Origin: Candidatus Melainabacteria bacterium 17Bon1m
GTDB taxonomy: Bacteria > Cyanobacteriota > Vampirovibrionia > Obscuribacterales > Obscuribacteraceae
Direction of reading: 5' to 3'
NCBI GenBank assembly: GCA_032128875.1
Contig: JAVLKG010000005.1
Coordinates: forward strand, 64,001-128,000
DNA: 64,000 nucleotides
The position numbers and the translations under genes were made by a program. How positions within the stretch are numbered: position 1 is the stretch's first letter; each line of letters starts with the position of its first letter. Under the pieces are notes generated by a model that saw nothing but the letters and a program-made list of their open reading frames with translations, had not been told where the DNA came from and ran no database searches. Below are positions 8,514 to 22,679 of the stretch, piece after piece.

Positions 8514-8930
8514 TCATGCCACATTTGCTTTCGGCAAGAAAACTGCAGGCGATACTTTGAAGTAGTGCGCTAGTTTGACGCAATGCTTTTTCGTCAGTTC
8601 GCGTTTGCCTGATACTAATTCGCTCATTACTCCTGATGAAACGCCCAAAATCTGTTGTACTGCAACTTGTTTTAAATTGTGCTCTTTCATGAATGACTGA
8701 AGGAGATGATGCGGAGCCAGATCCGAAACATTTAGTGCATGGTGTTTTATTTCGTATTTGCTGATTTCGTTGAGCAAAACTTCCAGATAATCGTTCTCGT
8801 CCTGTAAGAGCGGATCGACTCTTAGCATCAAGCTTTGCGCCATCGCGTGCGCGGCGTCCAGGTGACCGTCATTTTTGATGGGCACTAACGGAAAGCGCTC
8901 GATGAGAGCTCTGTATTTTTCAGTTACCAT
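8514..8930 (-). CDS. higA: HigA-type antitoxin (HTH)
   Basis: PLVPIKND..YLEVL..I.KYE N-terminus and HTH (LKQVAVQQILGVSSGVMSELVSGKRELT); TGATG overlap with the toxin. Confidence 0.85.
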   Translation of the reverse strand: MVTEKYRALIERFPLVPIKNDGHLDAAHAMAQSLMLRVDPLLQDENDYLEVLLNEISKYEIKHHALNVSDLAPHHLLQSFMKEHNLKQVAVQQILGVSSGVMSELVSGKRELTKKHCVKLAHYFKVSPAVFLPKANVA

Positions 8931-9214
8931 CAGAACTTCTCCCGGTCATACTCTGCATGAGTCATGATTTTGAGCACATACACTCTTTCTTGCTGTATCC
9001 AAACCATTGCGGCGAGTCTGAATTTATTACCATCGATGTTGAAAATGAATTTCTGGTTGCCGATGTGGTCCACACTGTTGAGCGTTTTTTGAACGTCGGT
9101 ATTGTTTTGCCATTCGGCGGCTCTAACTTTGATTATCCATTCGTGGAGAGGGGCTTCAGCTTCAGCGTGCTCGACGATGAACTGTTTGATCGCTCTCACG
9201 TTCAAAATGTCCAA
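8930..9214 (-). CDS. higB: HigB-type type II toxin
   Basis: FIFNIDGNKFRL and THAEYD motifs; likely TTG start at 9214 after AGAGGT; toxin lies upstream of the antitoxin. Confidence 0.85.
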   Translation of the reverse strand: MDILNVRAIKQFIVEHAEAEAPLHEWIIKVRAAEWQNNTDVQKTLNSVDHIGNQKFIFNIDGNKFRLAAMVWIQQERVYVLKIMTHAEYDREKF

Positions 9215-10003
9215 CTGAGCACCTCTTTCTTGCGATTCTCTCAAATTGAGAGGGGTATCGCAATTAAAATCTCTCATTTTGAGAGGAGTTGGTTTCCTGC
9301 ATTTGTTGGATGATTTTTCTTTTTCTGCTGGAAGTTTTGAATGTTCAATTGCATATGCTCGTCATTAAGTTTTTCCTGGTGAGCGAGCTAACGCTGTAAG
9401 AGATATTCGTTTACGAACAGGCTCTTAAATCGTTGTGAGCTATCGAAATGGCTACAGAGACGTAATTTCTGAGCTTATTCTCTTTTAAAAGCCAAGAGTT
9501 TAGTGTGTCGTTAGTTGCTTCGCGCGAGACTGTGCAACGCGCGCGAAGTCTTCTCTGATACCGAATTTAAGTTGCCAAATGATACAAATAGGCAACTGAA
9601 ATTGCGCATGAATCATGGGCCGAATTAGCTTTATCGCATAGATCCTTTTCGCGACAAACCCAGAGCAGTTCAGCCACGCACAATATTCCCGTATCCATAA
9701 CCGCAGAAACAACCGCAGCAGCCAACTGTTGTGATGTTGCAGGCACATTGAAACGTTCGTGTCCTGGTGCGGTTAGGCGAGGTTTGCGTGAGTGAGTTTG
9801 ATTTGGTCGAAACATCTGAGAGCTCTTTGGCTGGCTAAAACCGGTTCTGATGGCTCTTCCCTTGTTTTCTGGTTTGTTCGCGTAATGAGGCAGCTCTGAG
9901 CCGCCTTTCACCTGAAATCTGAATCGAGAACCGTGTCGCTCGTGCGAACTGTTTTCGCTAAACCGGAGCGCACTTGTGCGTTTCCAAAACTGGAGACTCG
10001 AAT

Positions 10004-11143
10004 ATGTGGATAATCAACCGTGAGGTGCGCCGACTCGTCGCGCGTATCGAGAGTTTTTCGTATGGGACGAATGGTGGAAACGAGCTCGATGACCTGCTGG
10101 TGCAGCTCGTCAGCTTGCTGCAGAAGCGCTGCGCGCACCCGAAGGTGGTCGCACGCTACGAGAGCTACCGCACGTTGGAGTCTGACCTCCGTCCGATGCC
10201 GGTCGATGCCGAGGGCTATGTCATCGGATACGACCCGCTCTCGCAAGAGAAAGAGTTCGTCGAGTGCTGGCAGAAGTACGGCATCGTCGTCGGACTCAAC
10301 GTCGTTTCGCCCCAACTGGCCGCCGCCACCATCCGCCGCATGGGCGAGTTGATGCTCGGTGCCAGCGACGGCAAGTGCGACCTCAATCGCCCCGAGACCT
10401 GGTCGGACATGCCCGCGGACAGCGCTGGTGTGCCGATTGCGACGCGCGGATTCTTCGAGGTCTACCACGACGACGCGATTGCCCAGCTGCGGCAGTCTGT
10501 TCGCGTCTACCTGCACTACGTCCTCATCTGGGGGCGTGCTGACCTCTGGACGACCTTCGACAGGCTCGGGCTCAAGCTGCCCGGTCACGAAGAGTCGAAG
10601 GCACTGCCGCTGCACGTGGACCAAAATCCCAACGTGCATCCGGACTTCCGCACCGTTCAGGGTGTTCTCGCCCTCGACGACTGCCCGGCAGAACGCGGCA
10701 CCTTTGTCGGTGTCGCTGGCTCGCGGGCTGTGTTTCCGATGTATGCGGAGATGGCGAAGAACGGCGGCGAGTACGTGGAGATGGACAGCAGCAACCCGCG
10801 GACGCTGCCGGTCCAAGACCGCGCGCAGAAGTTTCCGCTGCGCCGGGGCAGCCTGGTCAGCTGGGACAGCCGGACGACCCACGCCAACAGCGCCAATGTC
10901 TCGGACAAGACGCGCTACGTGGCTTACATCTCCTACGGCGTCAGCCGGCAGGACGACCCCGAAGCGCTCGCCTGGCGCGTCGACGGCTTCATGTCGGGTC
11001 TCGGCATGAACAAGCGCGACTCGTACATGCACGCGTCCAAGAAACCACGCTTCACGAATCAGCCGCTCATGGCTGGTCTGCGCAAGCGCGAACAACTCAC
11101 CGCACTGGGGAGACTCATCTATGGCATGCAGAGATATGAATAA
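10004..11143 (+). CDS. Phytanoyl-CoA dioxygenase (PhyH)-family Fe(II)/2-oxoglutarate oxygenase
   Basis: LHVDQ (HxD), VQGVLAL, GSLVSWDSRTTHAN (distal His), R-Y-V-A-Y; GGAG RBS before ATG 10004. Confidence 0.85.
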   Translation: MWIINREVRRLVARIESFSYGTNGGNELDDLLVQLVSLLQKRCAHPKVVARYESYRTLESDLRPMPVDAEGYVIGYDPLSQEKEFVECWQKYGIVVGLNVVSPQLAAATIRRMGELMLGASDGKCDLNRPETWSDMPADSAGVPIATRGFFEVYHDDAIAQLRQSVRVYLHYVLIWGRADLWTTFDRLGLKLPGHEESKALPLHVDQNPNVHPDFRTVQGVLALDDCPAERGTFVGVAGSRAVFPMYAEMAKNGGEYVEMDSSNPRTLPVQDRAQKFPLRRGSLVSWDSRTTHANSANVSDKTRYVAYISYGVSRQDDPEALAWRVDGFMSGLGMNKRDSYMHASKKPRFTNQPLMAGLRKREQLTALGRLIYGMQRYE

Positions 11144-12374
11144 ACTGCGGGCACTGCTCAACGCAGAGCCTTTTGGATTCGGTCCGACCGCCGCCATCGC
11201 TGACTGCTTCCCGTTCTTGCGGGAGGTCTTCGGCACTGTCGGTTATGTCGGCGTCGGCTTCACGCTCGACCTGCAGCGCCCCCTGCCGTACGACGCGATG
11301 CACGACATTACGGGCGTTCCTCCTGAGTTGCAGGATGCTGTCTTGGCGGAAATCTTCGCGCAGTACGACGTGTTCGTCACGGCGCTGGATTTCGGCATGG
11401 CCGAGAAAGCACGCGCTGCCGGGCTGAAAGTCGTCATCTACGACCCGCTGACCTGGTATTGGAAGTCGATACCGCCGGTGGTGAAGGATGCCGACCTGTA
11501 TATCGCTCAGGACTTCTTCGGAGTCCGCGAGCGCATGCAGGCTCAGCCGGACGTCTTCAACGCGAAGAACATCCGCGTTGTGCCGCCGATCATCGGCGAC
11601 GTCGGGCACGCATCTGGCGAGCGCGACACCGTGCTGCTCAATTTGGGCGGGTTGAACAACCCGTTCTGGAGCGCGGAAGGAACGCTCGCGTACGCGCGCT
11701 TTATCGTGGAGGCGTTCTCCAGGGTGGCGACGAATGTCGACATCGTCATCACCGCCAACAAGTGCATCGCAGCGAACGCGCGCATCGCTGAGGAACTCGC
11801 CGAGTTCGGTGTGAAGAACCTCAGCCGCTCTGAGATGCAGGAAGTGCTGAAGGGTGCGAAGTTCGCACTCATGACGCCTGGGCTGGGCAACGTTTACGAC
11901 GCGGCTCGCTTCGATATTCCCACCATCTGGTTGCCGCCTGCCAACGACAGTCAGGGGCAGCAGCTCCTGATGCTGATCGACCACGGAATGGTGGACGGTT
12001 TCGTCGACTGGCACCACTTGCTCGACCGCCAGCCGATCGACTACGACGCGGAGCAGACGCAGGTCCTGAAGAAGGTCTCCAGCGCTGTGACGCGTGCGTG
12101 CAGTCTCGGTTCGGCGAAGAGCAAGCTGGAAAAGCGGCTGACTGCCTGCATCACGGCGATATCCGAGGCGAACCAGTGGCGCCTCGATACGCGGCGCAGT
12201 TCGCGGCAGCTGCCGAAAGCAGCTTCGCACACGGCGCAACTGGTTGACCGGTTCGGTGCAGGCGGCGCCCGCGAAGTGGGTCGCCTCGTTGCCGAGCTGG
12301 TGTCTGAGATGAACATCACTTCAAACACGGGCGCGCACGAAGATGGGTGTCCGACAAAAGGAGGAGCGTCATGA
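11136..12374 (+). CDS. GT-B glycosyltransferase resembling cytosylglucuronate (CGA) synthase-like proteins
   Basis: FGFGP, LLNLGGL, MTPGLGNVYDA and PTIWLPPANDSQ motifs; start overlaps the PhyH stop. Confidence 0.6.
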   Translation: MNKLRALLNAEPFGFGPTAAIADCFPFLREVFGTVGYVGVGFTLDLQRPLPYDAMHDITGVPPELQDAVLAEIFAQYDVFVTALDFGMAEKARAAGLKVVIYDPLTWYWKSIPPVVKDADLYIAQDFFGVRERMQAQPDVFNAKNIRVVPPIIGDVGHASGERDTVLLNLGGLNNPFWSAEGTLAYARFIVEAFSRVATNVDIVITANKCIAANARIAEELAEFGVKNLSRSEMQEVLKGAKFALMTPGLGNVYDAARFDIPTIWLPPANDSQGQQLLMLIDHGMVDGFVDWHHLLDRQPIDYDAEQTQVLKKVSSAVTRACSLGSAKSKLEKRLTACITAISEANQWRLDTRRSSRQLPKAASHTAQLVDRFGAGGAREVGRLVAELVSEMNITSNTGAHEDGCPTKGGAS

Positions 12375-13357
12375 CTAAGCATAGCTACAGTCTGTATCTG
12401 CCCGGCGCGCTGCTGATGCGAGTCGAAACGCCGGTGCCCGCCTTCGGGACGGGAGGACAGATTCCGGAAGAAGTTCGTGTGCTGACCGAAGCGTATCTGC
12501 CGGGCGCCGAATTCGTCGGCGTCTGCGCGGTGCGCGGCGGGCTGCATGTGTCGACCGAGGAGCCGACCCTCACGGTCCGCTTCGAGGAAAGCAGCACCTG
12601 CAGTCTTTCGGTGAAGGGTGGCGAATATGTTCTGCGCGACACCTGGAAGGGTGAAGCGTCGCTGATGGACCTGCTCTTCCTCTGCTACGGCGCGGCTCGC
12701 CGTGCCTGGCTGAAGCGCGGGCTCTATCCCGTTCATGCTGCGGCGCTCTCCCTGGGCGATGGCGGCGTCACGCTCCTGGTCGGTCATTCCGGCTCGGGCA
12801 AGACGTCCGTCACTCTCTCGGCTGTGTCGCGTGGACACAAGGTTTTCTCCGGCAACAAGACACTGGTGAGAATCGACACTGTCGGCGAGCGCACTGTTCT
12901 TACCGCCATCGCCGGCACTCGATCCATGACGGCAAAGGCGGAAGATGTCGCCAAGCATCTGGAACTCGGCACGTTCAATGCAGGCTACCAGGGGCGCTCC
13001 GCGTTCTATCTCGCGCGCGAGCACTACGCTGCTACCGCACCGTCAGTGGTGCACAGCATCATTCTGCCCCGCCTCAATGACGGTGTGCAGAAGTGCAAGC
13101 GCATGAGCCCGGTCTCGGCGGTGCACAAGCTCTACCCGTACTTCCTCGACACGGTCAACGCCGATATCGTTCTTGCCGGCGGCAAGGCGGTGCTCTCCGG
13201 TGAACCGCGCAAGGGCGTGCGTGAATCGCTGGCTGCCGGACTCGCGGCGGCTTTCGATGTGGATGCTGCCAGTGGCGGCATGCAGTCTGCCATCTCCGTC
13301 ATGGAGGTGGAAGGCTCGATGGACTTCATCAATCGCACTCTGGACGGCAAGCGCTGA
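12371..13357 (+). CDS. HPr-kinase-related P-loop protein
   Basis: VHAAAL..GVTLLVGHSGSGKTS pattern; ATGA overlap with the previous gene; GGAGGAG RBS. Confidence 0.65.
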   Translation: MTKHSYSLYLPGALLMRVETPVPAFGTGGQIPEEVRVLTEAYLPGAEFVGVCAVRGGLHVSTEEPTLTVRFEESSTCSLSVKGGEYVLRDTWKGEASLMDLLFLCYGAARRAWLKRGLYPVHAAALSLGDGGVTLLVGHSGSGKTSVTLSAVSRGHKVFSGNKTLVRIDTVGERTVLTAIAGTRSMTAKAEDVAKHLELGTFNAGYQGRSAFYLAREHYAATAPSVVHSIILPRLNDGVQKCKRMSPVSAVHKLYPYFLDTVNADIVLAGGKAVLSGEPRKGVRESLAAGLAAAFDVDAASGGMQSAISVMEVEGSMDFINRTLDGKR

Positions 13358-13462
13358 CGAAGCGACTGCCGCCGGGGAGCGCATCCAAATGTACGCGCAT
13401 CTGTCGATGCGCTCCCTGAAGGTACGCACTTAGTGCGCGCCTTGCTATAAATGGAGACCAAA

Positions 13463-14611
13463 ATGCACAAAGCAAAAATTCTCTACGGAGTGTGCGGCAT
13501 AGGTATGGGTCACACCTACCGACAGCTCCCGCTCCTCGATAACCTGGCGGCAGAAGCGCAAATCGTCATGTTCGTCTACGGCGAGAGTCTGGACTTCTAC
13601 GGCAAACACTTCGCGGGCAACGCGAACGTGACCGTGGTGCCGGTGTCGGTTCCCTTCTATGTCGGTGACAAGAAGGGGCTCGACTTCGCCGAGACGGCGC
13701 GCCGCATCGCAGCCGACAAGGCTCGCGGAGTGGACCACGACGCCATCAACCTCGCCGCCATGGCGACTGCGCAACGCCTCTTCGGCGGTGACGGAAAGCC
13801 TGACTTGGTCGTCTCCGACTACTGTCCGGTGTCGGCGCAGTACGCTTACGCACACGGTGCGCCGCTCGTAACCATCGACCAGCAGAGCAAGTATCTCGCC
13901 GGCGACTACACAGAGGAGCTGGGCGGGACGACTTGCCTGGATGAAGTGGCGCGGTTGCGTCTCTTCTTCCCGCGGGCTGAAGCGCGCATCGCTTGCAGCT
14001 TCTTCGAGGTGGAACGCAATCCCGACGCTCGGGAACGAGTGCTCATCGTGCCGCCCTGCATCAAGCCGGCGATTGTCGACTTGAAGAAGCGACGGCGCAA
14101 GAAGGCGTTGACCAATTCGGTGCTGGTGTACATCTCTTCGCAGCGCGACTTCGTTCAACCACTCGATGAAGTGCTGCAGGTGCTCTCTAAGGCGCCGGAG
14201 TTCAAGTTCACCGTCTTCGTAAAAGAGCTGCCGGAAGCGCTCGCCGCCGCCGCGCCCGCCAATGTCAAATTGCGCAGGCACGGTGATCCGCGCTTCCTCG
14301 ACCACCTCGCCGAGTGCAAGGCTGTCATCTCCACCGGCGGTCACTCGCTGGTTTCGGAGGTGATGTACCTGGGCATCCCGGCGTACTTGATTCCGTTGGC
14401 TGTCTACGAGCAGCAGGTCAACTCGCATGTCGTGGGACGCAATGGTTTCGGCGTTTGCGCCGAGAGCCTGAACGTCGCCGAACTGCGGTGTTTCCTCGCC
14501 AATCTGGACGGCTACGCCGAGAACATTCGCAAGGACCGTGAGGTTCTGGTGCGTGGCTCGGGTGAGCGGAAGATCCTCAATATTCTGAAACGGCGTTTTC
14601 TGGCGCGCTGA
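13463..14611 (+). CDS. GT-B glycosyltransferase (MJ1255-like/GT28-related)
   Basis: KILYGVCGIGMGH, PDLVVSDY, ISTGGHSLVSEVMYLGIP and YEQ motifs. Confidence 0.85.
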   Translation: MHKAKILYGVCGIGMGHTYRQLPLLDNLAAEAQIVMFVYGESLDFYGKHFAGNANVTVVPVSVPFYVGDKKGLDFAETARRIAADKARGVDHDAINLAAMATAQRLFGGDGKPDLVVSDYCPVSAQYAYAHGAPLVTIDQQSKYLAGDYTEELGGTTCLDEVARLRLFFPRAEARIACSFFEVERNPDARERVLIVPPCIKPAIVDLKKRRRKKALTNSVLVYISSQRDFVQPLDEVLQVLSKAPEFKFTVFVKELPEALAAAAPANVKLRRHGDPRFLDHLAECKAVISTGGHSLVSEVMYLGIPAYLIPLAVYEQQVNSHVVGRNGFGVCAESLNVAELRCFLANLDGYAENIRKDREVLVRGSGERKILNILKRRFLAR

Positions 14612-14660
14612 CGAAAGTCAGTTCGCCGGGGCGCCTGCCTCAAATGCAGAGAGGAAGAAT

Positions 14661-15665
14661 ATGGCTGAAACAAAAACAATTCGAGTCGGGTTGATCGGAC
14701 CCGGCGCGATTGCTGATGAACGGCTGATACCAGCGCTCTCGACCATCGAGGGCGCTGTCTTCTGGAGCGTGCTCGGGCGCGACCAGTCGAAGGCGGAGAA
14801 ATTCGCCGAGAAGCATGGAGCAAAGGCGCCGCAAGCCGCCTTCAGCGACATGGCTGTGTTTCTCGCCGACTCCGAATTGGACGCGGTGATCATCGCGTCG
14901 CCCGACAAGTTGCACGCCGAGCAAGCCATCGCCTGCGCCAAGGCCGGCAAGCACGTCTTCGTCGAGAAGCCGCTTGCCACCAACTCCGTGGACGCGCGCG
15001 CGATTGTCGAAGCGTGCAATGCGGCGAAGGTGAAGCTGACGGTCGGCTATCACCTGCGGTATCACGCTGGGCATCGCAAGGTGCTCACGCTGCTCGGCGA
15101 TGCTGCGACCAGCCCCATCGGTGCCATCCGGCACATCAACGTGAGCTGGACTTTGCAGTCGAAGGTCGCCGACTGGCGCGCCGACGACAAGCTCGGTCAG
15201 TGGTGGAGCCTGGCGGCGCTCGGCACGCACAGCCTCGACCTCGTCACGTGGTTGCTCAAGGGCGCCGGGGGAACGTGCGAAGCGCGCTCCCATCAAAAAA
15301 TAAAGGAGACGAGCTGCGTCGTTTCGAGCCCGGTCTTCGGCTCCGCGCATGACGAAACCTCGCTCGTGGGGCTGCTCTTCGAATCGGGCGTCACTGCTCA
15401 GATTCTCTCCAGCGTCATCATGCGGGCGCCGCGTGTTGTCGAAATCTTCGGCAGCAAGGGTGCAATTCGCTGTGTGGAAACCCTCGGTCCACGCGGCACG
15501 GGCACCATCACCGTCAACGGCGAAGAACTGAAATTCGTCCCCGTCGATCCGTACGCCGGCGAGTTGAAAGACTTCGTCGTATCCGTCCTTTCCAACCAGG
15601 AACCTTCCGTGACCGGTGCCGAAGGTGTCGCCAACGTGGAGCTACTGGAGCGCGTGAGTCAATAG
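14661..15665 (+). CDS. Gfo/Idh/MocA-family NAD(P)-dependent oxidoreductase
   Basis: GLIGPGAIA Rossmann motif, DAVIIASP, AGKHVFVEKP, GTHSLD. Confidence 0.92.
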   Translation: MAETKTIRVGLIGPGAIADERLIPALSTIEGAVFWSVLGRDQSKAEKFAEKHGAKAPQAAFSDMAVFLADSELDAVIIASPDKLHAEQAIACAKAGKHVFVEKPLATNSVDARAIVEACNAAKVKLTVGYHLRYHAGHRKVLTLLGDAATSPIGAIRHINVSWTLQSKVADWRADDKLGQWWSLAALGTHSLDLVTWLLKGAGGTCEARSHQKIKETSCVVSSPVFGSAHDETSLVGLLFESGVTAQILSSVIMRAPRVVEIFGSKGAIRCVETLGPRGTGTITVNGEELKFVPVDPYAGELKDFVVSVLSNQEPSVTGAEGVANVELLERVSQ

Positions 15666-15715
15666 GTCGTTCGCGAACTAGGCACTATATATGGTGCCGC
15701 AAGGAGATACTCCAT

Positions 15716-16696
15716 ATGGACGAAAAGTCAACTGGACAAGCCGCCTATCGCGGCAAGCATTTCACCATTCCACCCTTCTCCAAGCGCGGAGGGTTGCGGT
15801 TCTACGGCAACGCCAAGAGCAATCTGGTGCCCATCGACCGCAATGATCCGATCATCGCCACGCTCAATCAGCCGTTCGACCTGGCGCACTTCAAGACCGC
15901 GCGCAAGCCGCTCTCGCTCGGGTTTCTCTCCCCCGAGGAGATGGCGATTCTCGCCAACCCGCAGCCCGGTGTCCCCCGTACTCTCGATCTGCCGATCAAG
16001 TTTCCGGGCTCCGACTACCGCCTGCCGCGGGCGCTGCGCTGCTACTGGCCTATCATCAAGCGCGCCGCCGACTTCGAGGCCGCCATCAACGGCAAGTGCC
16101 TGGACGAGTACTACTGCTACCTGACCATCGACTGCGGATGGGTGGAGCCGGGTATTCTCCAGCGTGAGGCACCCTGCCACGTGGACGGCTTCCAGGGCGC
16201 GCGCTGGCGTCCGAAGGTGCGCGGCAACCACAGCTACACGGTATCGAATGCGGTGCCGACCGCGTACTACCTCCAGCCCTTCGACTTCGATGCGCTGGAC
16301 GAAGCAGTGCACAACTTCTTCTGGGAGATGAATTACCAGGTTGCTCAGACCAACTCTCAGTTCGAATGGCAGCCTGGTGCCGGCGAGATGACGTTGATGG
16401 ACTGCTACTGCGTTCACCGCGGCACGCCAGCCCCGGTGCGCGTCTTCCGGACGTTCGTGCGCATCTCTTTCGAGGCGCGCATCTTCGACCGGCTCGGCAA
16501 TGCTCACAACCCGCTCTTCGCCTACGACTGGCCAATGGTGAAGCGCGATATCGAAGACCTCAATCTCGTTGCCTTCCATGCCGACAGCGACCCCTCGCTG
16601 CGCGTCTTCCCGCACGAGAAGGTCGACGGCAGTCCACAGGAAGGCCGCAACAAGACACAACCCAACCTCCGCCCCGGCGACTTCGACAAGAAGTAA
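15716..16696 (+). CDS. Putative 2OG/Fe(II)-type double-stranded beta-helix oxygenase
   Basis: YCYLTID..QREAPCHVDG (HxD), MDCYCVHRG (distal His), RTFVRISF; AAGGAG RBS. Confidence 0.55.
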   Translation: MDEKSTGQAAYRGKHFTIPPFSKRGGLRFYGNAKSNLVPIDRNDPIIATLNQPFDLAHFKTARKPLSLGFLSPEEMAILANPQPGVPRTLDLPIKFPGSDYRLPRALRCYWPIIKRAADFEAAINGKCLDEYYCYLTIDCGWVEPGILQREAPCHVDGFQGARWRPKVRGNHSYTVSNAVPTAYYLQPFDFDALDEAVHNFFWEMNYQVAQTNSQFEWQPGAGEMTLMDCYCVHRGTPAPVRVFRTFVRISFEARIFDRLGNAHNPLFAYDWPMVKRDIEDLNLVAFHADSDPSLRVFPHEKVDGSPQEGRNKTQPNLRPGDFDKK

Positions 16697-16716
16697 TCGC
16701 CGGCGTCGGCTTTTCT

Positions 16717-16746
16717 ACTGACTGACTGACTGACTGACTGACTGAC
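16717..16746. repeat. (ACTG)7.5 tetranucleotide microsatellite
   Basis: ACTGACTG... over 30 nt. Confidence 0.95.
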
Positions 16747-16759
16747 CGCGAGGTCTATG

Positions 16760-16812
16760 AGAAACGAGCAGAAGACCGGCTTAACAACCTGGTTTTCTGA
16801 CTCGTTTTCTTG
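16760..16812 (+). terminator. Probable intrinsic terminator of the 10004-16696 operon
   Basis: AGAAACGAG-CAGAAGACC...GGTTTTCTG-A-CTCGTTTTCT imperfect stem with a T-rich 3' end. Confidence 0.6.
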
Positions 16813-21917: not shown

Positions 21918-22679
21918 TTAGCGTCCGACCGATGCGCGCCAGCGGTTGATCGCCTCGACGTGGCTCGAGAAGGCAATGTCTTCGGGCAGCTCGTCGAGCT
22001 GGAAGACGCGCGCTTCGGTGGCATCGCTGCCGGGAGCCGGAGTCTGGTCGATTTCCTTGGCGACGAAGAAGAGCAGCACCTGCGGCGTCTTCGGCGGCGC
22101 AAAAGTGTAGATGAGGCGCTCGACTTCGATAGCGATCTTCGCCTCTTCGCCCGATTCGCGAGCGGCGCCTTGCTCTGGAGTTTCTCCAACTTCCATGAAG
22201 CCGGCGGGCAAACACCAGGAGCCCTTGCGTGGCTCGACGCCGCGTTTCACCATGACGATGCCACCGGATTTGTGCGGCACGATGGCGGCAGCGACCGGCA
22301 GTGGGTTGTTCCAGTAGACGAACGTGCAGTGCGTGCACGCAAGGCGAACCTTTTCGTCGATTTCGCGCTCGGCAAGCGGGCTGCGGCAGCTCGGGCAGTG
22401 TTTGAACTGCGGGCGTGCAGTCTTCAGCGCCTCGAAGTCAGCTTTGGCTTTGAGAGCCTTGCTGCGCTTTTCGGCGATGTTCATTCCCAGCCCGAATATC
22501 AGGCAAAGAGCGAAGACGTCAAACACCTTCACTCCCATGATGACCGGAACGACAAGGCTGAGCAGCGCCGAGCCGAACATGAGAATCAACGCAATCCAGC
22601 CGACCGCGCGAAAGCGGTTGAGCAGAAAGCCGAGCCCGAGGGCAGCGGCAAAACTTACAAGAAGTACAGTACCACTCAT
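21918..22679 (-). CDS. NUDIX hydrolase with zinc ribbon and N-terminal TM helices
   Basis: CPSC..CTHC ribbon, WNNP, Nudix box GFMEVGETPEQGAARESGEEAKI; hydrophobic N-terminus. Confidence 0.85.
   Translation of the reverse strand: MSGTVLLVSFAAALGLGFLLNRFRAVGWIALILMFGSALLSLVVPVIMGVKVFDVFALCLIFGLGMNIAEKRSKALKAKADFEALKTARPQFKHCPSCRSPLAEREIDEKVRLACTHCTFVYWNNPLPVAAAIVPHKSGGIVMVKRGVEPRKGSWCLPAGFMEVGETPEQGAARESGEEAKIAIEVERLIYTFAPPKTPQVLLFFVAKEIDQTPAPGSDATEARVFQLDELPEDIAFSSHVEAINRWRASVGR

Follow-up and report, generated by a model that had tools for sequence, protein, structure and literature searches.

CGA-type glycosylation of nucleobases is known from actinomycete antibiotic clusters, where the CGA synthase (BlsD/MilC) couples uridine diphosphate (UDP)-glucuronate to free cytosine (PMC3715490). 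Huimycin biosynthesis employs a glycosyltransferase (GT) that attaches a hexose-type sugar to an unbound base analogue (PMC7439116), and kanamycin biosynthesis includes a 2-oxoglutarate oxygenase and reductase pair, KanJ/KanK (PMC5533434). Here, we describe six genes, g1 to g6 in order, within 64,000 nucleotides (nt) of Candidatus Melainabacteria bacterium 17Bon1m, order Obscuribacterales (contig JAVLKG010000005.1, positions 64,001 to 128,000; hereafter the window). The first four form a core module that may hydroxylate and glycosylate a nucleobase- or nucleotide-type small molecule in a coupled pathway, a reading to which we give a probability of about 45%. It draws on the genes, the predicted folds of g2 and g3, the motifs, the synteny and the fusions, all read directly, and from these we infer every reaction, substrate and purpose named below. 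By their distribution, g5 and g6 are an independent second module, joined to the core only in this genus. The core genes are as follows.

10004..11143, + strand: g1, PhyH-type Fe(II)/2-oxoglutarate oxygenase with H204-D206-H293 and R304; core module
11136..12374, + strand: g2, GT-B glycosyltransferase of a CGA synthase sister family, without the catalytic His; core module
12371..13357, + strand: g3, PEPCK/HPr-kinase-fold P-loop protein with an intact Walker A (GHSGSGKT) and SGNK in place of Asp-Asp; core module
13451..14611, + strand: g4, MJ1255-like GT-B protein in which His21 and E320-Q321 are invariant; core module

The strongest evidence that g1 to g4 act on one substrate comes from fusions. 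Among 32 longer g2-profile proteins (proteins are numbered with P, loci with L), all four domains are present in P0361, P0441 and P0444, six more combine g2, g3 and g4, three g2 and g3, and two g1 and g2, and a g6 domain is found in none of the 32. Since the fusion proteins are only 26-56% identical to each other, fusion of the core domains probably arose several times. Synteny points in the same direction. When one genome from each species was searched with an alignment of 69 g2 sequences and partner genes were located by tblastn, 69 g2 loci emerged, with g1 in 34, g3 in 36 and g4 in 37, all within the 43 non-actinobacterial loci, and the order g1-g2-g3-g4 is kept in 26 of the 37 loci holding at least three of the genes, the window included. 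Seven of the 43 are without g3: in Pseudomonas alliivorans (L076) g2 stands alone, and the other six loci are either short or stop close to the edge of a contig. The sequence-only reading had made recurrence elsewhere a test of its proposal, which holds for g1 to g4 across lineages but not for g5 and g6, each present at three of the 69 loci and all in the window's genus.

The four-enzyme set is present in many uncultivated microbes, and among its hosts are Obscuribacterales, Saccharibacteria and other Patescibacteria, Nanoarchaeia, Micavibrio, Bdellovibrionales, TM6, Chlamydiae and Kistimonas. Its distribution is sparse and patchy, g3 being found in 16/107 genomes of its own order, in 2/401 Patescibacteria (with two distant relatives in other contexts) and in 4/300 Chlamydiota, the last two counts including the seed genome; a metagenome scan with g3 gave at least six loci. 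None of the 26 actinobacterial g2 loci has g1, g3 or g4, and in most of these an alpha/beta hydrolase gene lies divergently opposite g2 (marked by its antisense shadow in 22 of the 26), a neighbour read out among the matches listed and in one case typed by Pfam. The actinobacterial g2 forms its own sub-clade and, mostly with this hydrolase, an undescribed, separate two-gene unit (L048, L051-L060, L062-L067, L069-L072, L077-L081). In L049:5695-7680, L046, L050, L147, P0343, P0350 and P0354, g2 is preceded by a fused unnamed domain of ~270 amino acids (aa), domain X, which in the Chlamydiae-type g2 gave no Pfam match and no usable Atlas match. P0405 and P0462 have g2 fused to a common C-terminal domain (36% over 78 aa) that lacks a Pfam match and has an H-T motif resembling that of ADP-ribosyltransferases; it was not used as evidence.

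The sequence-only reading called g2 CGA-synthase-like, and g2 is indeed a true relative, but score and tree both indicate that it is a sister family of the CGA synthases rather than a member. It reaches 71.4 bits against TIGR04467, whose cut-off is 300, and in a quick tree with Shimodaira-Hasegawa-like approximate likelihood ratio (SH-aLRT) support only, and with long branches among seven weaker relatives, 38 g2 rows lie on one side of a branch (support 99) and 17 CGA rows on another (99), leaving g2 outside the CGA synthase clade. These 17 rows are TIGR04467 matches from Streptomyces, 13 of them above the cut-off, and include two that had been dropped for a wrong frame and were re-entered through six-frame extraction; matches above the cut-off occur in 15/401 Streptomyces genomes. 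Likeness extends over the full length of the protein. The AlphaFold2 model of g2 has a GT-B fold (predicted local distance difference test, pLDDT, 93.8), and five motifs from the N-terminal, acceptor and donor sides are common to both families: FGxG(P/S), DxL(T/P)(W/F)xW, LGGLxxP, (P/S)GL and LPPxNxSQ. Neither family has a His at the position of the GT1 base, where g4 carries its invariant His21, so that g2 combines a GT-B fold with the His-less FGxG(S/P) and LPPxNxSQ motifs of CGA synthases. Because of these five motifs and the absent His, the chemistry of g2 may be of the same type, i.e., N-glycosylation of a flat heterocycle. The best fold match is YojK (Z 24.2, root-mean-square deviation (rmsd) 3.4, 310 aligned residues), with MurG third (Z 22.4) and small-molecule GT1 enzymes otherwise nearest. 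The closest g2 relatives are labelled Obscuribacterales/Melainabacteria, and at E values of 1e-30 or lower the g2 profile reaches at least 231 representatives, some of which may be non-g2 relatives. Where the blasticidin S and mildiomycin pathways have BlsE and an aminomutase, g2 is accompanied by a PhyH protein, a P-loop protein and another GT.

The partner enzymes g1 and g4 fall into known families. g1 matches PF05721 at E 6.8e-10 (40 bits, with a Pfam cut-off of 22), its profile matches SnoK (E 7.4e-9), and the H-x-D...H triad expected of PhyH proteins is in place, H204 being found in 26/27 homologs and D206, H293 and R304 in 27/27. g4 belongs to the MJ1255/VC2487 family by PF13528, where it lies above the Pfam cut-off (E 1.8e-38), but differs from it by TIGR00661, where it lies below (112.7 bits, cut-off 195.9). 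His21 and E320-Q321 of g4 are invariant in 25/25 homologs, and in the PDB its closest sequences belong to GT1 enzymes, YjiC among them.

The third core protein resembles kinases in fold but departs from them at a key site. The AlphaFold2 model of g3 (pLDDT 89.9) has a PEPCK/HPrK fold, matching PEPCK with Z 15.2 (rmsd 3.9, 269 aligned) and HPrK with Z 11.9 (rmsd 2.5, 125 aligned), and g3 shares with HPr kinase, the HprK-related kinases (TIGR04352, TIGR04355) and FomB (NF000361) the His before the P-loop and the Walker A motif. Unlike them, it is fused to GTs in other genomes and lacks the Asp-Asp motif, and its sequence scores are far under the cut-offs, including the best ones to HprK_rel_B (E 2.9e-5) and FomB (E 3.6e-5). 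The segment lsgnkt (SGNKT) of g3 aligns with IADDRV (ADDRV) of HPrK in 1jb1, and Asp-Asp after the P-loop helix is present in 0/82 g3 homologs, SGNK being found in 65/82 and SGDK in 10/82. The Asp residues of the HPrK motif bind metal and act as the catalytic base, for which the literature search returned no confirming text. As the motif is replaced in all 82 homologs, the label of kinase is doubtful for g3, as is an ordinary hydroxyl-kinase activity predicted from its sequence, and with it the phosphorylation step that the sequence-only reading had assumed.

The genes around the core suggest which substrate the pathway could use. We scanned 96 of 126 neighbour open reading frames (ORFs), having set aside shadow frames and the near-copies that came from related loci. 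A YjjX-type ITP/XTP phosphatase lies at most two genes away in 4/13 Patescibacteria loci, and directly before g3 in L117, against a baseline of any YjjX in 27/201 such genomes. Other nucleotide-type neighbours are NUDIX (L014, L045, L068, L082), a LOG-like gene (L026) and an MTA/SAH nucleosidase upstream in L147, and further phosphohydrolases are a histidine phosphatase (L017 and kin) and a HAD protein (L035). Fusions also link the core to nucleotides: P0184 joins NUDIX to g3, and in P0396 and P0402 two domains precede g2, one of the adenylate/UMP-CMP-kinase type and one further P-loop domain. The nucleoside-type context proposed from the sequence alone is supported by recurring nucleotide-handling partners. 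P0402 is recorded from the transcriptome set of a eukaryote, Goniomonas avonlea, through transfer or contamination.

In the proposed scheme, YjjX, NUDIX and the other phosphohydrolases would strip phosphates and feed the pathway, in which g1 would add a hydroxyl and g2 would transfer a sugar from a UDP-sugar to a ring nitrogen of the free base, in the manner of CGA synthase. g4, with its catalytic His kept, would then O-glycosylate the hydroxyl made by g1 or another one, and g3 would bind ATP or GTP and either phosphorylate an already anionic group or sense a nucleotide, both being more likely than the action of a hydroxyl kinase. g6 and then g5 could oxidise and reduce a sugar position as KanJ and KanK do, whether on the same molecule as the core or not. 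The addition of a hexose-type sugar to a free base analogue would resemble the GT of the huimycin (hui) cluster, HuiG, likened here by description only; hui differs in encoding preQ0 synthesis and a methyltransferase, neither of which is conserved in the cassette. A literature search, with most subscription papers and bioRxiv supplements outside its reach, found no paper on CGA synthase glycosyltransferase homologs, none naming the MJ1255/VC2487 family, none on HprK-related kinases with glycosyltransferases, none joining YjjX with a glycosyltransferase, dioxygenase and kinase, and no mention of Obscuribacterales among the papers listed.

Two purposes share the probability of the hydroxylation and glycosylation pathway. 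Patescibacteria and Chlamydiae commonly scavenge nucleotides. Such hosts, together with the house-cleaning partners and the absence of any conserved exporter, tip the balance slightly towards a pathway that neutralises or re-routes a base or nucleotide of a non-canonical or toxic kind, a purpose that is still unlikely when taken by itself; making a nucleoside analogue would be somewhat less likely again. YjjX is presumably linked to resistance against the pyrimidine antivitamin bacimethrin, a link that the literature search did not confirm, which makes bacimethrin a candidate substrate only. A more far-reaching version, to which we give little credence, would see an undescribed four-domain line for free bases or nucleotides that was passed by transfer between predatory microbes and those dependent on a host, turning a non-canonical or antimetabolite base into a hydroxylated di-glycoside, with the Asp-Asp-less g3 in a new role and a Chlamydiae/TM6 version exported onto the nucleotide pools of host or compartment. 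If the pathway is as proposed, the MJ1255-like family, the HPrK-fold family without Asp-Asp and the phrog_1843-like oxygenases represented by g6 would each gain their first function. It would also place a sister family of CGA synthases, with at least 231 sequence clusters, in an enzyme set that is different and tightly coupled, and in lineages whose chemistry has hardly been characterised. Because four-domain versions exist as single chains, one gene is enough to test the pathway.

Several points weigh against a nucleotide-directed pathway. The YjjX cases reduce to about three independent events, and NUDIX, HAD and histidine phosphatase genes are common, their counts here being raw ones. UDP-glucose dehydrogenase is found in only 3/5 cassette genomes tested, and therefore UDP-glucuronate is not an established donor in these predicted pathways. 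Since the 26 actinobacterial loci have g2 alone, mostly by the alpha/beta hydrolase and without core partners, a nucleotide substrate need not hold for g2 as a family. In the Chlamydiae/TM6 loci (L042, L044, L045, L046, L049, L147), a hydrophobicity heuristic assigned signal-peptide-like ends to 14/14 cassette proteins and to 0/6 proteins of the operon described here; the predicted ends fit a cytoplasmic pathway poorly, as the co-substrates are cytoplasmic. One protein that has no evident signal was flagged as well, and because unrelated neighbours such as the MTA/SAH nucleosidase have such ends too, they may be a lineage trait. Outside the genus, g1-g4 and g5-g6 are co-resident, unlinked, in 2/94 genomes where 1.0 is expected (P 0.27), for which reason the window genome's own g5-g6 may be unrelated to g1-g4. 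Two runs labelled RNA-Seq were considered as expression evidence and rejected, since their depth is flat across genes and gaps on 19-kb contigs; they look like DNA and are hence silent on transcription.

Among the other explanations, the one that survives best, although unlikely, is that the core assembles or decorates a glycolipid of the envelope, a glycan or a surface glycoprotein. The signal-peptide-like ends of the Chlamydiae/TM6 proteins would suit this role, as would the place of MurG in the g2 fold search and weak MurG/GT28 matches of g4. However, the top-ranking matches, by fold as by sequence, are GT1 enzymes acting on small molecules, the hosts differ greatly in their envelopes (Patescibacteria, Nanoarchaeia, Chlamydiae), and the 96 neighbour ORFs contain no flippase, polymerase or nucleoside diphosphate (NDP)-sugar gene, with a single divergent GT2 in L041. 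Grouping with envelope-polysaccharide genes, named in the sequence-only reading as what would count against a nucleoside role, is thus not seen for either GT in the neighbours scanned.

It is less likely still that the core modifies a macromolecule, hydroxylating and then glycosylating a protein, a peptide or the bases of RNA or DNA. HPr-kinase-fold enzymes act on proteins and peptides, and oxygenase and GT pairs are reported to hypermodify phage DNA (bioRxiv 10.1101/2023.12.21.572611); in addition, relatives of g6 occur in 20 phage records, one of them near an RNA ligase. Yet, g1 is PhyH-type and not of the TET/JBP type, and no g2 relative was found in viral contigs, so that neither the oxygenase nor the viral location of phage DNA hypermodification (5mYOX/TET plus GT) is present. 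The 30 fusion proteins scanned have no nucleic-acid-binding domain, and no conserved precursor ORF was found among neighbour families of at least 70 aa. PADLOC 2.0 detected no component of an anti-phage system, returning only fragments at E ~0.004 for g1 and g3. The antibiotic, anti-phage or nucleic-acid roles suggested from the sequence alone found no evidence in their favour.

Inactivation of a non-nucleoside xenobiotic or antibiotic through hydroxylation and glycosylation has a still smaller chance of being right. The fold neighbours of g2 include antibiotic and xenobiotic GTs, a macrolide-GT-like gene stands in place of g2 in L117, and transporters, confined to L148, L149 and P0427, are of the Bcr/CflA type, flanking the first two loci and joined to g2 in the third. 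The four-domain fusions and the fixed gene order nevertheless suggest a single channelled substrate and not broad detoxification, and the fusions with nucleotide kinases and NUDIX would be left unexplained. That all six genes form one dedicated cluster for a blasticidin-like peptidyl-nucleoside antibiotic is very improbable: they share orientation, short gaps and one terminal hairpin, and the arrangement is kept in four genomes of the genus, but g5-g6 is absent from 66/69 g2 loci, no conserved exporter or regulator appears among the neighbour families examined, and the window's own genome (93% complete) has no match to arginine aminomutase and a best BlsE score of 38 against a cut-off of 400, in line with the sequence-only reading, which noted the lack of other genes of such clusters, those for the aminotransferase and ligase.

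Apart from the proposed hydroxylation and glycosylation core, the operon holds the following features.

13373..13418, + strand: hairpin in the g3-g4 gap, without a U tail; z -5.2 for 13345-13455; single copy in the genome
14661..15665, + strand: g5, Gfo/Idh/MocA oxidoreductase (PF01408); add-on module
15716..16696, + strand: g6, probable 2-oxoglutarate oxygenase by motif, its family being unnamed; add-on module
16674..16705, + strand: remnant of a NUDIX gene, whose last codons now close g6 in frame; 32/32 nt as in the L014 NUDIX end
16759..16811, + strand: strong hairpin, probable transcript end; z -6.9

g5 matches PF01408 (Gfo/Idh/MocA) at E 1.2e-25, and its nearest PDB entry is 1,5-anhydro-D-fructose reductase (E 4e-23), sugar reductases being closest. 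g6 has no Pfam or NCBIfam match, and profile comparison against g1, PDB and Pfam gave none either. It does match phrog_1843 (E 7e-15), whereas no PHROG match was found for g1-g5. Since H155-D157-H234 and R245/R249/S251 are invariant in 46/46 homologs and an Atlas neighbour is auto-named phytanoyl-CoA dioxygenase (0.97), g6 is a probable 2-oxoglutarate oxygenase. The family assignments of the sequence-only reading accordingly stand for g1, g4 and g5, while those for g3 and g6 are supported by HprK matches under the cut-off and by motif, respectively. As a predicted 2-oxoglutarate oxygenase and reductase pair, g6-g5 resembles KanJ/KanK by description, but g6 has no PhyH match and the window locus has no aminoglycoside genes nearby.

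The two genes travel together without the core. g6 has 460 database relatives and matches in 14/107 genomes of its own order, and it was not found in 301 Patescibacteria genomes, though database names show that some have it. Twelve g6 regions were fetched; in all eight with g6 of at least 60% identity, none of them from the genus, g5 lies at most 0.7 kb upstream, and no region matched g1-g4. A g5-g6 fusion also exists (P0219). Instead of the single six-gene pathway first proposed, the ancestral operon of the genus had seven genes. A NUDIX gene lies 3' of g6 in the three same-genus loci and in L178 and is absent in the window, where the 32 nt at 16674-16705 match without exception the close of the NUDIX gene in L014. 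The g6 tail GDFDKK also differs from those in 3/3 same-genus loci, and because g6 now ends in L014-identical NUDIX codons, the comparison indicates that the window strain lost the gene via an in-frame deletion. A NUDIX paralog at 21933-22427 (- strand) of the window is 36-38% identical to the lost gene.

Distant g6 relatives adjoin a DegT aminotransferase and a PfkB or adenylate-kinase-like gene in L179:6058-9273 and L180:4097-6960, a possible amino-sugar pathway of Obscuribacterales, and the DegT-type aminotransferases point to sugar or amino-sugar chemistry. Further relatives lie in phage and giant-virus contigs (L153, L154, L183-L187), and in phage DSS3_PM1 (L154) the gene follows, at a distance of two genes, a metallophosphoesterase and an RNA ligase 2. 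An unnamed gene of ~340 aa without a Pfam match precedes g5 in L172:8491-9516 and L173:4926-5936.

The layout of the six genes is as the sequence-only reading described it, with ORF coordinates confirming one orientation and overlaps of 8 nt between g1 and g2 (11136-11143) and of ATGA between g2 and g3 (12371-12374), followed by gaps of 93 (g3-g4), 49 (g4-g5) and 50 nt (g5-g6). The 7.55-Mb genome carries one copy of each gene, and g5 has three distant paralogs besides. The terminator proposed after g6 fared less clearly: a consensus scan found none there, and a short stem directly 3' of the stop codon does not stand out from shuffled sequence (z -0.9), but the hairpin at 16759-16811 is matched by 0/200 shuffles, and hairpins occur at the equivalent position in 3/3 same-genus loci (L014, L015, L016). 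It has no clean U tail and is a probable transcript end. No Rfam match was found within the window.

The genes are GC-rich, as first noted, with a GC content of 0.61-0.63 (0.75-0.83 at third codon positions, GC3) against a genome median of 0.495, and 2.7% of 5-kb windows of the genome exceed 0.58. This richness was rejected as proof of recent transfer, because cassette GC tracks host GC across loci (0.27 to 0.63) and equally GC-rich stretches are present elsewhere in the 64-kb window. An (ACTG)n microsatellite at 16717-16746, between g6 and the terminal hairpin, is absent at that place in L014, and a HigB/HigA-like toxin-antitoxin pair (8514-9277, - strand) lies upstream of the operon and divergent from it.

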